DNA from: Rhina ancylostomus
Lineage: Eukaryota
Assembly: GCA_030265395.1 (NCBI GenBank)
Contig: JARFYF010000050.1
Coordinates: 19,244,044 to 19,308,043 of the forward strand
DNA length: 64,000 nt
Direction of reading: 5' to 3'
Shown here: piece after piece, positions 350-7,399 of the stretch
Numbering within the stretch: the first letter of the stretch is position 1
Layout: every line of letters begins with the position of its first letter
The notes under the pieces: model-generated
What the model saw: the letters and a program-made list of their open reading frames with translations, nothing else
Databases searched by the model: none
Told to the model about the DNA's origin: nothing
Position numbers and translations under genes: made by a program

Positions 350-3138
350 CCCAGTTTTAATTCCCCCCACCCCCACAAGCACACTTTGATGCTACCAAGT
401 GGAATTTACAGCTACCACATATTTTCTACAGCACACAATTCACATAATATTTCATAAGTAAACATTTATAAAGATGATAGCTATTTTCTTTTCCCCAAAA
501 AGTATAAACAGTGCCTTTTTAAAGCTATTTTTTCTTTTTTTATATTATAAAAAAATGATCCATGGAATACTTATGTGCACATATTGAAAGTGTATAAAAG
601 GATGATTACATTTCTTTCTAAGTCTGTTCCTACTTATTTTAATCTGCGTATATGAAGACAATCATATGCTACTAATCATAATAAATACTCAGTTTTAAAT
701 ACTTGAGTCAGATTGACCTATAATACACCATATTGCAATGGTTTTTGGAATATATTTTAACAGAATATATTTTGGCAGTAAAAAAAGTAAATTCAAAACC
801 AAAAATAAACTACACACAAATTAAAAAATCTCTGCAGCAAGGAAAACACAACATATATTAGAACAGCTCCTTAATTCTGATTATGCTGCCTTCGTCTGAC
901 TACAAAACCTACACAGCATTCAGAACAGACTCCGCTCCTGTTAATCCTCAGAGATGTCAGATTTTGATAACATTACACAAAACAAAATAAAACGTGATTC
1001 CAATTTTTTGGTTCATTCACGCAGTCACAATCTCATTTCATATTTAATAATCTAATCTCTTTACACAATTCACATTNNNNNNNNNNTAGGAACCCTCCTC
1101 GGAGACAATAAATGATTAAAAATATATAAAAAACTTGTATTGGAAAAGGTTGGGATGTTTGCTACTCCAGAGAGACCTCGCAGACTACTTTTGTAATATA
1201 CAAAGAATACTTAAAACTAATGGATATAAAATTCCAAACATGAAAGACCTGTTTTTAGTCTTCCTCCTATTTGAAATATGATATTTTATCATAATAGTTG
1301 TGGTCATAATATTAATTGCATTAAAAGAAACAATATGCAGCTAATTTCTTTTCCATGTGTTTTATCCAGTTCTCTTTAGTAAACATGCCCATTACAAATG
1401 TTTGAAATCTCGACTTAAGGTGATAAAGTGCTTATCAGGCAAATGCCTTCCATTTAGTAAATTGCAGTTGCATTGAATTTTTATAAGTTAGGCATTAATA
1501 TTTGCATAATTGCTTGCTGTGAATAAGGGTCCAAAACTTCTGATCTTTAAAATTCATGTCTAACAAATCCCCGTGTGTTAGCTCAGCTGAGAGAATCATA
1601 TAATTACCTAATGTAAAGAATTGTATTATATATTTTACTGTATTATTATGTTAGCACATTGGAAGCTTTTATGCATAATTTGAATGCCTTTAAAATAGTT
1701 AACTGTACTGAAATATTAAAGTTTTAAAAAAATTACATTTCTTTTGAGCTGCTTTTGAAAGCTTTTAACCAGCAACTGAACCAACTTCAATTGCTGGGGT
1801 CGGCTTATTTTATTAAATTTTGCCATTAGCAACTCCAGAATGATCTGAGGAAATGTGATGACAATTAATGAGGTGACAGCTCAGGAGACATATATGGTGC
1901 ATTGAAGTAAATGAGGCTTGTTTCAATCTTAAAGCAGTGAGGAAAAGAGGAATGGGATGCAGAAAAAGTGGCAAAGCTGGGCAGGAGAGCAATGTTACTT
2001 CCCTTATCAGGCTACATCTTTCAAAATACCCTTTAAGCCCTGTGAAAATCTTTTCTGAAATGATTATGTCAGTGACGTGCCTCTATAGTTGACTTTTATC
2101 TGTTCCCTGTGGCATGACTGCCCTTGGTAACAGAGTGTTGCCATTTGACTTCAAGTGGAACATAGCTGCAACACAGAAAGCCAACACTATTCAATGAGTG
2201 GGTTTCCTCTCCAAACTGTTAGCCACAGTGAGAAATGTTTACACAGTGCCTCCACAGAAGAGGATTAAATGAAATTTCACAATGTCAATTGGAGGTTTTC
2301 TTTTGGTGGAGGAGGTTACAGCATTTTACCTTTTGATTTATAATGAGAATCCATCCTTGCATTGTAGCTGTAGTTAAAGACGTTAGACTGAAGCTGTCTA
2401 CAAGAATAAACTGTTTCCTTTCTCTATTAATCAAATGAGACTCAAAAATGAATATAATGGAAGGCTTTAAAAAAGCTCACTTCACACAATTATGGTTATG
2501 AGGGGAATGTTTCAATCACTGCTCTGGTTGACACTTCAATCCACCAGCCACAAGTGATTAGCTTTGTCAGTTTTGTTGCACTGGCCTGTTGTTAGGTGCT
2601 GATCACATAATAATCTGGGGTGGGATTAGATGAGGAGAGATTAAATGTTGTGCAGCTTTTATCTTTCTGACTATCACCTTAAAGCTGTGTGGCTCATTTC
2701 ATACAAACTCGTGTTCATTTAACTTAATTTAAAATCAACCATCCTGCAAATCTGACAGTCACTTAAAAAAAAGGAAAAAAATATTTTGGCCTAGATCCAG
2801 AGAGCTTTCTGGTTGGTGCAAATCTGTGAAATTGGCATAGTTGCCAATTTCAAAAGAAAACAATGTAGCTGTCAAGTCTTTTTTTCTGTTGTTTTAAGTT
2901 TACACATCAGAAATTTTCTTCAAAGTATATTATACTGAGCAAAACTCAAGAAAAATTTGCAGTAACCACAGATAAAACATGTAATAAACACAAAAAAAAG
3001 CATCTGAGGTAAAAATATCATGTTAACCAAGAGAGCATCAGCACAAAACATTTCTGCATGTCGTGCCGAACCCCCCACAGTTTCTGAGAAGACGTTTCTA
3101 GCCCTGCTGGGTTTTAGTGTGTCTCTGAGTTTCTCTTG
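350..3138 (-). other. RBFOX3: Probable RBFOX3 3' UTR (distal end uncertain)
   Basis: Follows the stop codon, is AU-rich and has no recognisable TE. Minus-strand AATAAA at 1809-1814 and ATTAAA at 1043-1048, 638-643 and 356-361 are candidate poly(A) signals. Confidence 0.55.
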
Positions 3139-3183
3139 CTAGTACGGGGTGAAGCGACTGTACCCTCCTCTGTACAGGCTAGC
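3139..3183 (-). CDS. RBFOX3: RBFOX3 terminal coding exon (ASLYRGGYSRFTPY*), carrying the C-terminal PY-type nuclear localisation signal
   Basis: Minus strand reads tttcatctttgatgttgcag|GCT AGC CTG TAC AGA GGA GGG TAC AGT CGC TTC ACC CCG TAC TAG; phase 0 after GTM. The RGGYSRFTPY end matches RBFOX3, whereas RBFOX1/2 end RFAPY. Confidence 0.95.
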   Translation of the reverse strand, partial: ASLYRGGYSRFTPY

Positions 3184-3613
3184 CTGCAACATCAAAGATG
3201 AAAAAAAAATCAAATAAATATTTTTTAATGTACGAAATGCTACAGCAAAAACAAGCCACAAATCTAATTAAGAGAATGAAGGGAGAAAAATCATCTTAAT
3301 TAATGAAAGCTTTTAGCTAGCAGCTGCTCCGGAGATATGCAAGATTTGAAACCACACGCACGCCACCTCGGCAAATTTAAATCATTTGTCTAAACGAAGG
3401 CATTGCGCTGATGAAGCTCAAGGGAGGGCAGCCTTTTTTTTCTCTCTCTCTGCAAAACGGTTACAGAGGGCTTTGCTGCAATCACCATTCATTAATCTTA
3501 ATGTTTTTCTTTTTTTTTGTTGAGGCTTTCAAAATGGAAAATTGAATTTTTTTTCATCTGTGATGTTGGCTGCAAAGCTAGCTAAAAACCACGTGCATCA
3601 GTAAAAGTATCCA

Positions 3614-3700
3614 CTAGAGTGAGTGTGAGAACTGAGAAAGAGGAAGAGAGACAGAGGAAGAGACACACATACAGAGAAAGGAAACAGTGGGAGAGAGAAG
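3614..3700 (-). promoter_or_regulatory. Long polypyrimidine tract with candidate alternative 3' splice sites (AG at 3632-3633 and 3614-3615)
   Basis: Minus strand ctgtttcctttctctgtatgtgtgtctcttcctctgtctctcttcctctttctcAGttctcacactcactctAG. Confidence 0.5.
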
Positions 3701-6493
3701 CAGTCTATATGTGTATGAATTTACCCCTGACATTGATGGTAATTGTGCAAAAAAAAAGCCTAATCCCTAGATCTTCTTATGCTGATCAGCTAAATATATC
3801 TGTATATCTCCTTATTATTTTAAAACACCTTACATTTTAATTAATTCCCTAGTTGACTTCCCCTCCAATGTGGCCTGCTTGCGTCGATGTACTGGGCATC
3901 AGGGGCCCTCACTTTCAGCATAGCTTCCAGTGCTCTCGCCTATCAGTGACACGGTCTCAGGTTGGAATTAAAAAGAGTACTTTATATTTTTGCCTTGCTG
4001 TGGTGAGCGGTCCCACTTGATTTTAAATTGAGAGAACTCATCACTGACAAGTAGGCTGGATGGAGAGTCACCCATTATTTTATAAAGTTATTAATCTACA
4101 TTTTTAAAAACTCTTAGCAATCAGAATTTTTCCCATTCCAAACTTAATTGCGGCAAATCTATATTATGAACGTAGTTCCTTGAAAAGAATGATGGGTTGC
4201 ACCTAAATATGATATAAAGTAATGAGAAGTGAAATGAATAAGTATGCAGTAAAACATTCCAAACCAAAAGTTGCTTAATTTAGAGCAATTATACCTGTAG
4301 TTTAGGAGAAGCCATTTTGCCCACTCAAAAGTTTAGTAAATAAAACTAATTTCTGTTAGTGCTCTTGCTTCTTCTATGACATCATCAAATATTGTGTTGT
4401 TAGGAGAGAAGTGTTAGTTAGGTCATCTGTGAGGGATATTGCCTGGGTTGGGACATTGACCTTTAACCTCCCCTCATAAGCACTGTGAAACAGTAGAAAT
4501 AAGTGACCAGTCATAGTTTGCAGAATCAATTTAATTCGTTTCTGACCTCCATGTTTCATTTGAACATGAAGCAGAACCAAGTCATGTGACATAAATGTTA
4601 AATCCAAATAAATGCTATAACTGTGTGTGGGTTTTGTGCATTTGTATAGTTCCACGTACTTAAGACCCTGAATGGTTGATCACGTGAGGTCATGTAGCTC
4701 ACCTGTTCCCCTGGTAATAGAATGAAGAAGATTCTTCTTGGTGCCAACAACTCTAGTTTCCAAATCTACACACACAGCTTTGAATGATAACACTGGAGAT
4801 CCAACCTGNNNNNNNNNNATTTGCATGCATTTCACTTCTGCAAGCACAGGACCAGCACGTTGAGATATTCAGTATTCTACTTATTGCCCAGTATAAGCAA
4901 TTGCTTGCTGTTTTATCTGGGATGAGAGCTTGGAATTCAGTGGGATATTGGGACCTTCCCATAGCCTAAAGACAATGGGCAAAAATATTCCATAAAATCA
5001 AATGAACTGTCACAGTTGCACAAAATCCTGAGTTCTTCCAATTTGACTTTGTTGGACTTAAAAGCAAAACTGATCCAAACCGGAGAAAGTTCTGATTGGA
5101 TTTGGTTTGATTAAATCCGTTTGGATTTTGGGTTCAGTTCAATGCTTAATCCCTACCTGGTAAGCCAACCAAGGACTGGCATTGACGGCATTCCTGGAGA
5201 TATCTCTGAGATGAACCGTCCCACTCTCTCTAACGAGGAGGATGCCATGGTTGCAGGAGGTTAACATGGGGGAGGAAAGAAAATGGGGGAAAATGAGTGG
5301 GGGAACAAGAGATTCTCTAACTGGACATGTTGAAATTACAAGACAAAGCAGGCAGGAGCTAAGAAACTTTCTGCTAGTAATGACTAATAGAAATAATATA
5401 GAGAAGATCATTCAATGATGTCAGAGACGAGAGAGGACCAAGTTTAAGTTAGCTAGTCTTTTAGTAGCTAGCAGATTGTTTAATAACAGATTTCTCCCAA
5501 ACTACATAATTTTTGGGTGTATCAGAATGTCTTATAATTACCTTTTTGCATCAAATCAGGCGTTTACAAAGCCATTACCATAAAAGCCTAGGCACAATTC
5601 CCCTGCAGGGTTAATACTGCACTTTCATTATTTTGATGTATTCTTTTACCTATATTTGAAGATGTGTGTTGTTTTGCTACATGTGTGGTCTTTTAAACTG
5701 TGGGATGCATTATCTGTCATCCCACTGCAATAGAATAGCATCTGTAGAAATGGCACTTTTGTCATGGGGTATTAACAGCTTTCTCATGACATAAAAAATT
5801 CTTAACTGCTATCGGTATGTAAATGTTTCAACGTAATTAAATTTNNNNNNNNNNNNNNNNNNNNNNNNNNNNNNNNNNNNNNNNNNNNNNNNNNNNNNNN
5901 NNNNNNNNNNNNNNNNNNNNNNNNNNNNNTGAGGGGATGTAGTTTCTCCCAGTGCTTTCCTGTGTATATCTCTGCGGATAAACGTAGATATGTGACTTGG
6001 GCATCCTTTATGAAACAGATCTACAGATAGACAACCGCAGCCATTTTACCAGCAGTGATTTGTTCTTTCTTTTATCTGTAGGTTTGGTTCATATGTGTAT
6101 AGAGTCACGGACATCTATGGGTACACTACTATACTGTAGTAACTATTACAGAAAGCAAAGGCATCTTCAATCTAGTAGAGAGAAAGGGCTGCACAAACAT
6201 GTGCTAAAGTGTGTTTCTCCTCAGTTTAGGGTTGAAGCAGTTTTAATTAAAGAGCTTGAGTTTTAGGGTTGGTGTTTAACATAAGGTTATGGCAGGATTT
6301 AAAATTTGAAAATGTTCAGCTCTTTGCCCACAGAAGTTCTTACACTGCAATAAAAGTACAACCTATGTGTGCCTGTAAGTGTGTGCCTATGTGGGGATTT
6401 ACGTGCAAAGACACACGCTCACAAAATACATGCTCGTGTTGTTTTCTGTGCAGAATGCCAGTCACTACAGTAAGAGGGGTTATTAATGCTTAC

Positions 6494-6572
6494 CATGGTG
6501 CCAACGCTGTACGTTGCAGCTGGTGCAATTGTGTGGTGGTATGGGTCGGCTGCTGCATAGACTCTGCCATAA
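6494..6572 (-). CDS. RBFOX3: RBFOX3 coding exon, 79 nt ((S)[26 protein letters not shown])
   Basis: Acceptor ctctttgttttccag, donor ATG|gtaagc; peptide matches the RBFOX C-terminal domain and phases fit the neighbouring exons. Confidence 0.96.
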
Positions 6573-7399
6573 CTGGAAAACAAAGAGAAATACTTTCATT
6601 ACAAATCCAAGTCAAGAGTCACCAGTTCACTTACTTTGGGTACACCAAACGTAGGATGAAGTACTCCCAACTTGATAACACAGTGCCCATTTAAATCTGA
6701 CACAAATTCAAAGAGTCAGACAATGGCAGTGCGTGCAATCTACATATATGCTGCTACTTTTCATAGACTGAAGTAAAAGTACAAGCAAAATGTTTCAAAA
6801 TATCTTTTGTAAGGTAGAAATAAAAGCAAAAACTCTTTAAACCCAGCAGTTAGTTTTTGGCATTGTACCCTAACTCGGTGTCCCCAACAGTTAGAAATGA
6901 TATACGGCTCAGATATACTGCTTAGCTATCTTTTCATGAAAACATGCAACACTTCTGAACTGTTTCTGATCTTTGCTAAATTCAATGCACAGTTGTTTTG
7001 TTTGTTAATTGGCTTTATATACATCTATAATATTCCTTGGGCAATTAGACCAGTGGTATGAAGAATTTCACCACACAGCTCTAAGCATTGCCTCAGTACA
7101 GTAATCAAATTGAAGTGGTTAACTATAAACTTTCTACTAGAGGGCACCCCAGTACAGAATTAACAAATGAAGATTATTCCATTTGTGCATTGTCTACCAT
7201 TGAATGCTATGACTGGTCAATTTCCCTTTGAAATTATTAATCTTCTGTTATTTCAACTAAATGTAGCTAATATACAAAGACACATTTTCAAGTAGTGCTG
7301 TATTTATTCAGAAGCCTGATTCTTCAAATGGTATAATTTTAAAAAAGGGTTTGCTCAAGAATCACACACACATTTGGACCTTAATGGGTCCTTAATGGG

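Follow-up and report, generated by a model that had tools for sequence, protein, structure and literature searches.

The nuclear and cytoplasmic forms of NeuN/RBFOX3 arise from the choice between the exon 15 and exon 15A acceptors (passages of PMC3126832), and the question raised by the present locus is whether an RNA structure takes part in that choice. In mouse Rbfox3, exons 15 and 15A have alternative 3′ splice sites (passages of PMC3126832 and PMC11980809), the resulting proteins are distributed differently between nucleus and cytoplasm (passages of PMC3126832), and the stop-only 15A is used 6–7 times more than the NLS exon 15 in neurons (passages of PMC11980809). The mouse Rbfox3 passages of both papers contain no cis mechanism or RNA structure, and no report of a cis mechanism for NeuN acceptor choice, or of a duplex in RBFOX3, was found in open-access literature listings, which present the papers in part. 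The main text of PMC5369223 does not mention rbfox. In the window analyzed here, a stretch of 64,000 nucleotides from Rhina ancylostomus (JARFYF010000050.1), the initial annotation had proposed that an intronic sequence pairs with the 3′ splice site of the NLS exon, hides it from U2AF, and switches protein localization.

The gene is indeed RBFOX3, as had been proposed. The best exon 14 matches are so named, RBFOX3 being the name of most of the named matches among the 120 listed, and shark and ray models align exon by exon. Its exons in the window are as follows.

6494–6572 (−): RBFOX3 exon 14, ending in ...YSVGTM, with the donor GT at 6493; placed by tblastn of RBFOX3 models.
5930–5971 (−): cassette exon A, in frame, visible part; 78 nt in relatives, with the remainder in the N gap 5845–5929; 14/14 match to shark/ray models.
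5157–5229 (−): cassette exon B, 73 nt, frameshifting; 24/24 protein-identical to shark/ray models.
3139–3183 (−): coding part of RBFOX3 exon 15, ASLYRGGYSRFTPY and a stop, the second half of the hPY-NLS, behind the proximal acceptor; 14/14 identical to shark/ray models.

The exon at 3183 encodes a PY-type NLS, as annotated, in the form of the R-X2-PY half of the hPY-NLS: RFTPY at 3156–3142 satisfies the R/H/K-X(2–5)-PY consensus of PMC3126832, and the GTM junction and the -FTPY end that identify the RBFOX3 exon 15/15A event are both present. Tyr/Cys (TAC/TGC) variation was observed at two positions of this exon, 3170–3172 and the 3158–3160 region, in a metagenome-collection contig (L013:1348-1389) and in vertebrate models (ASLY/ASLC, GGY/GGC). 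The description of the exon as the last one is contradicted by our data. Acceptor 3183 is the first of four, and three more lie downstream, outside the window, at about G000:C50:19243738, 19242427, and 19241198 (minus strand; L011:9696, 8385, and 7155), with exons whose reading frame varies between models, two or three frames being used. The acceptor at G000:C50:19241198, ~6 kb downstream of 3183, is stop-only, with TGA first; it is where SDSGMTQVHCTK maps, as do the VTLA tails of 15 models, and it is the counterpart of mouse exon 15A. As far as the published passages on mouse Rbfox3 go, the two loci share the gene, the NLS exon, and a stop-only acceptor giving the short -GTM end, whereas two extra cassette exons, two extra downstream exons, and a distance of ~6 kb to the stop-only acceptor distinguish the present one.

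Competition between these acceptors is real in the shark/ray lineage, judging from 66 gene models (69 proteins examined, three without the junction motif left out) that were picked by cluster and whose counts are not abundances. Acceptor 3183 is used in 21 of the 66 and the stop-first acceptor in 24 (15 mapped by the VTLA tail, nine inferred from the bare stop), while 19 use the two other downstream exons (16 and 3) and two are unplaced; the FTPY end stands in 15/66. A stop-only acceptor located upstream, inside the conserved block, was considered and rejected (0/66 models use an acceptor in 3184–3650), and nothing in 3184–6494 matches the mouse 15A primer well. A candidate 15A at 2761, with a strong tract and TGA first, was also rejected because VTLA maps 6 kb downstream; from 2761, cassette B would read VTVRF..., and the models read VTLA. 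In that part of the 3′ UTR (2700–2790, minus strand), a strong pyrimidine tract is followed by AAG and then TGA at 2761, used by no model examined, and the hairpin over 2761 (2874–2899 with 2761–2786) is weak at −10 kcal/mol.

Exon 14 was expected to be joined to 3183 from 6494. This is a valid donor, but it is one of three, together with those of cassettes A and B. RNA-like contigs from two studies join cassette B (X15) and cassette A (X19) to 3183; the loose end of X15 at 3186 is the cassette B 3′ end, and that of X19 encodes the cassette A 3′ end, matching shark/ray models. The RNA nature of X15, X16, X19, and X20 is assumed, and X15, despite crossing a splice junction, carries a probable-DNA flag. 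Both X15 and X19 end exactly 30 nt into the cassette (31-mer assembly), a faint hint of a second route from each donor to an acceptor whose first base is not G, like the TGA acceptor. Cassettes A and B share a terminal ACCAG, as far as the sequences examined show, and are absent from the bony-vertebrate models examined; a protein search with one cassette B reading frame returned no match. When cassette B is spliced to 3183, the protein ends in ...LVGLPG, exon 3183 is read as Gly-stop, and the NLS is lost. The proposal that alternative acceptors set localization thus holds insofar as NLS-losing acceptors exist in cartilaginous fishes, but acceptor choice alone does not set localization, because cassette B removes the NLS even with 3183.

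The elements that bear on the proposed duplex all lie in the intron immediately upstream of 3183.

3569–3591 (−): element U, with two predicted alternative partners, the acceptor/exon start (3185–3178) or element M.
3542–3568 (−): 5′ arm of the predicted duplex, intronic; 25/27 complement of 3187–3213; pairing P 0.88.
3488–3510 (−): 5′ strand of a second, nested helix (partner 3284–3307), inverted repeat I14; P 0.62, −17.3 kcal/mol.
3244–3334 (−): element M, a conserved intronic block inside the loop; core 3328–3311 complementary to U; 73/92 columns identical in L013.
3184–3213 (−): 3′ arm, comprising a putative branch point at ~3210 (from consensus), the pyrimidine tract, and the CAG of the NLS exon.

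Recounting gave the same figure as first reported: 3542–3568 is the gap-free reverse complement of 3187–3213 at 25/27 positions, and the two mismatches would be C-U and U-U. The arm pair is the longest among 38 inverted repeats in region 2500–7000. Its ungapped complement score is 21. The null sets peak at 12 (120 other 1-kb blocks), 14 (578 random targets), and 13 (300 dinucleotide shuffles), and scores at 12 other acceptors of the RBFOX3 gene range from 7 to 11. An A/U run had been expected to lower the weight of the stem. It does account for 9/27 pairs, yet the 14-nt core that excludes it was found, at ≤1 mismatch, nowhere in 128 kb except the two arms. The complementarity between the arms is real, and its signal is not carried by the A/U run. 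In the 2.2-Gb assembly, the 27-mer pattern matches only at the two arm sites (counts being lower bounds), which agrees with the earlier statement that the arms are unlike the TE families seen in the window: they form a single locus and lack the multiple genome copies of a MITE. Rfam covariance models gave 0 matches at E ≤ 1 in 2000–7000.

Folding predictions place the main helix at P ~0.88. The suggested extension across the AG is also predicted, with 3582–3575 pairing with 3185–3178 over 8 bp (P 0.83–0.92). The predicted duplex energy is −27.1 kcal/mol for the arms alone and −38.3 kcal/mol with the extension, and the predicted duplex covers the branch point, the pyrimidine tract, and the AG. 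Opening the last 20 intron bases is predicted to cost 20.8 kcal/mol at 3183 versus 3.7–10.7 kcal/mol at 10 other sites, two of which were set 1 nt off. The 431-nt region as a whole is unexceptional (6/100 shuffles fold equally well, z −1.54). The statistics of the nested helix at 3488–3510 are weaker because its strand is A-rich. A CT-rich low-complexity tract at 3630–3700 (minus strand) is predicted to pair through 3647–3639 with 3171–3163 in the purine-rich exon (P ~0.7), with low statistical weight.

Element U has predicted duplex energies of −19.6 kcal/mol with the acceptor and −24.2 kcal/mol with M. The U:M pairing, about 13–17 pairs centered on a palindromic hexamer, does not reach significance alone. 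When the growing transcript is folded, U:M is predicted at P 0.71–0.80 before the 3′ arm is transcribed, after which U pairs with the acceptor (P 0.92) in the masking fold. Forcing U:M makes the full-region fold ~35 kcal/mol worse, so U:M is possible only as a kinetic intermediate.

Close relatives point to constraint on this part of the intron. The contig of organism B carries 35 substitutions in 2900–4800, of which 33 are listed, 32 of them in 3600–4800 and none in 3001–3599; that of organism C carries 38, of which 36 are listed, 34 in 3600–4800 and one at 3592. Listed substitutions in 3184–3599 thus number 0 in B and 1 in C, where about 11 and 12 would be expected, a depletion with P 0.001 (B) and 0.003 (C) even if every unlisted change is placed there. 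The gap letters, 13 in B and 15 in C, are all accounted for and none falls in either arm; homopolymer runs are constant in length in the arms and vary in the loop, and the 5′ arm has no listed substitution and no gap in either contig. B and C are not independent, because most of their differences are shared. In organism D, 20/855 positions in 2900–3754 are changed versus 76/1046 (Fisher P 5e-7), with positions listed for 2 of the 20. No compensatory change was seen in the arms, B and C being invariant there among the substitutions listed. Conservation in B and C extends beyond the arms to the loop and 3′ UTR, so it is not specific to pairs and supports a function of the block rather than pairing. 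The exon and start of the 3′ UTR (3001–3183) are nearly invariant, with 0–1 differences in X15, X16, and X20. Over 3187–3650, the RNA-like contigs gave only 35-nt low-identity pieces, and such contigs cannot prove absence. Just 5′ of element U lies TGCACG (3592–3597, minus strand), which we take to be a secondary RBFOX motif and which suggests autoregulation; the change of organism C at 3592 breaks it.

One arm can be followed much further. L013, from a metagenome collection, carries a teleost-type RBFOX3 exon. It is identical to the window at 22/22 intron nucleotides back from the AG and at 38/42 positions of the coding exon, and the intron end is therein more conserved than the coding exon; immediately 5′ of those 22 nt the two sequences diverge. 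In both sequences, a TGAT in the 3′ arm fits the branch-point consensus. When the intron end is translated as a read-through, FSSLMLQ appears in Seriola, carp, and Silurus gene models and in the ORFs P0187 and P0188, and SSLMLQ in five of 120 models from a separate listing; ORF P0188 combines the read-through with ASLCRGG, a form that mammalian models share. On this basis, which is translation rather than DNA, the 3′ arm likely reaches mammals. Element M is also old: its alignment with L013 scores 105 versus ≤37 in 100 shuffles, with an identical 18-nt core, and it lies ~1.2 kb further upstream of the acceptor there. M is single copy in the assembly, and M and the 3′ arm each gave 0 matches in the genome and viral collections searched. 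The 5′ arm was not seen beyond close relatives; L013 begins 46 nt before M, ~200 nt short of where the arm would lie, and the arm is not traceable through ORFs either, because no stop-free frame of 30 aa covers it. The 1.3 kb upstream of the acceptor in L013 contain no complement to the 3′ arm (score 7), and the distance between the arms in that locus would be ≥1.5 kb. A second teleost-type Rbfox3-like last exon (L012:96-190) lacks the 3′ arm, sharing 3 nt, and is possibly a duplicate that lost the conserved element.

Within the genome, Rbfox-type exons were matched at four other sites (G000:C36:34486538, C67:12307048, C75:642416, and C112:22590538). Their complement scores are 6–9, with no such repeat, although the C36 site is not established as an acceptor and the last intron bases at C67 are N; the last exon of C36 was not found within 30 kb. 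The C112 paralog, L019 (G000:C112:22589038-22592070, minus strand), is presumably Rbfox1, judged by its extended C-terminus. It has an in-frame upstream acceptor 78 nt before the NLS exon, and the resulting extension ends in VLSSLQ, which the 3′ arm resembles. The intron end of L019 is weakly like element M, with scores as high in 6–9 of 300 shuffles. The paralog split may therefore be younger than parts of the block.

Taken with the complementarity and uniqueness of the arms, the order of the acceptors (3183 first, the stop-only one ~6 kb later), and the deep conservation of the 3′ arm and M, the folding models lead us to lean toward the view that the duplex weakens acceptor 3183 and lets NLS-less downstream acceptors compete. 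In the pre-mRNA, the intron stretch 3582–3542 would pair with the 3′ splice site of the NLS-coding exon and would lower access of SF1/U2AF. As 3183 is the first acceptor met, this is the position where masking would matter, and as it is proximal, masking would favor the NLS-less distal acceptors. A weaker 3183 would shift the isoform mix to cytoplasmic protein forms, and localization would be set jointly by acceptor choice and the frameshifting cassette B. The masking originally envisaged agrees with the predicted opening cost, but it is not absolute, because RNA-like contigs join cassettes A and B to 3183; a block of 21 kcal/mol at equilibrium would not allow such joins. The duplex may thus act as a rheostat rather than a block, and early U:M pairing, displaced once the 3′ arm is made, may set the timing. 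A bolder version, which we regard as rather doubtful, is a two-state co-transcriptional switch of jawed-vertebrate age, in which U would first pair with M and then switch to the acceptor with the appearance of the 3′ arm, and transcription speed or a helicase would set the nuclear-to-cytoplasmic RBFOX3/NeuN ratio in mammals and sharks alike.

Masking was weighed against other explanations of the same data. It is conceivable, though we would not expect it, that the block acts through protein-binding and splice-signal sequence, with the complementarity left over from an ancient inverted duplication at the locus and retained through constraint on the block as a whole, pairing being of little effect. 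Such constraint on sequence agrees with the conservation of loop and UTR with the arms, the lack of covariation among the changes seen, and the use of acceptor 3183, and the weak likeness of M to the paralog intron end and of the 3′ arm to the paralog VLSSLQ extension would suit a relic. However, 25/27 pairs and an 8-bp extension would hardly be expected to survive in a neutral relic on a site hundreds of millions of years old, and the other paralog sites tested carry no such repeat. That the arms are MITE terminal inverted repeats, or a product of chance, is suggested by two arms ~330 nt apart with an A/T run, but is highly improbable given the single copy in the assembly, the lack of a flanking duplication in the sequence, a score far outside the nulls, and a 3′ arm conserved to a teleost.

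Other readings accept the duplex and give it a different role. It might work through ADAR, whose binding would shield the pyrimidine tract or which would edit the acceptor A or exon codons. A predicted near-perfect duplex of ~35–40 bp (−38.3 kcal/mol) in a neuronal gene fits this idea, as does the blocking of U2AF65 at pyrimidine tracts by ADAR binding reported in a passage of PMC7404189, and the Tyr/Cys variation at two exon positions in vertebrate models is of the A-to-G type. We nevertheless consider it unlikely, since those variants stand in genome-derived models and in genomic L013 and are therefore hard-wired in several lineages; no editing-type change in the exon occurs in the contigs compared, which drop rare variants. 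Alternatively, the structure could aid splicing at 3183: decoy AGs (3408, 3264, 3241) might be looped out, for instance, or the site might be kept in reserve for delayed, regulated release. The loop contains pyrimidine-rich AGs at 3408 and 3264 and a third AG at 3241, none of the 66 models uses an acceptor between 3184 and 3650, and a structure replacing U2AF2 has been published for fish introns (PMC4691745). Yet the arm lies directly over the tract and the AG, a layout that speaks for obstruction, and a helping role is accordingly quite improbable.

Masking of 3183 by the duplex would belong to a known class, that of structures obstructing splice sites (passages of PMC8052449 and PMC7404189). 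Like the PCCRs described in passages of PMC8052449, the arms are an intronic complementary pair beside a splice site, a few hundred nucleotides apart and predicted to obstruct; the same passages report a depletion of PCCRs at splice sites in active use and a tendency to stay clear of branch points, whereas a used acceptor and a putative branch point are covered here. RBFOX3 has 0 occurrences in five supplementary files of PMC8052449, a count outside which the full PCCR catalogue, a browser track, falls; a human pair may already be in that catalogue. Element U, one strand with two exclusive partners at alternative exons, resembles the competing structures of ATE1 (PMC7797038) and the docking/selector sites of Dscam1 (PMC12962786). 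Those systems concern mutually exclusive internal exons and were mutation-tested, while the present case concerns alternative acceptors and is a prediction from sequence. The stem-loop at cTNT exon 5, where MBNL1 competes with U2AF65 (passages of PMC7404189), is likewise a structure at a pyrimidine tract; it is local and has a known protein partner, whereas the partner strand here is 330 nt away.

NeuN/RBFOX3 is a standard neuron marker, and the present finding names the exact bases to mutate. Mammals appear to have kept the target arm, so the question is directly testable. If the masking of 3183 is true, RBFOX3 would carry an unusual case within a known class of mechanism, a conserved duplex that covers an acceptor in active use, branch point included.
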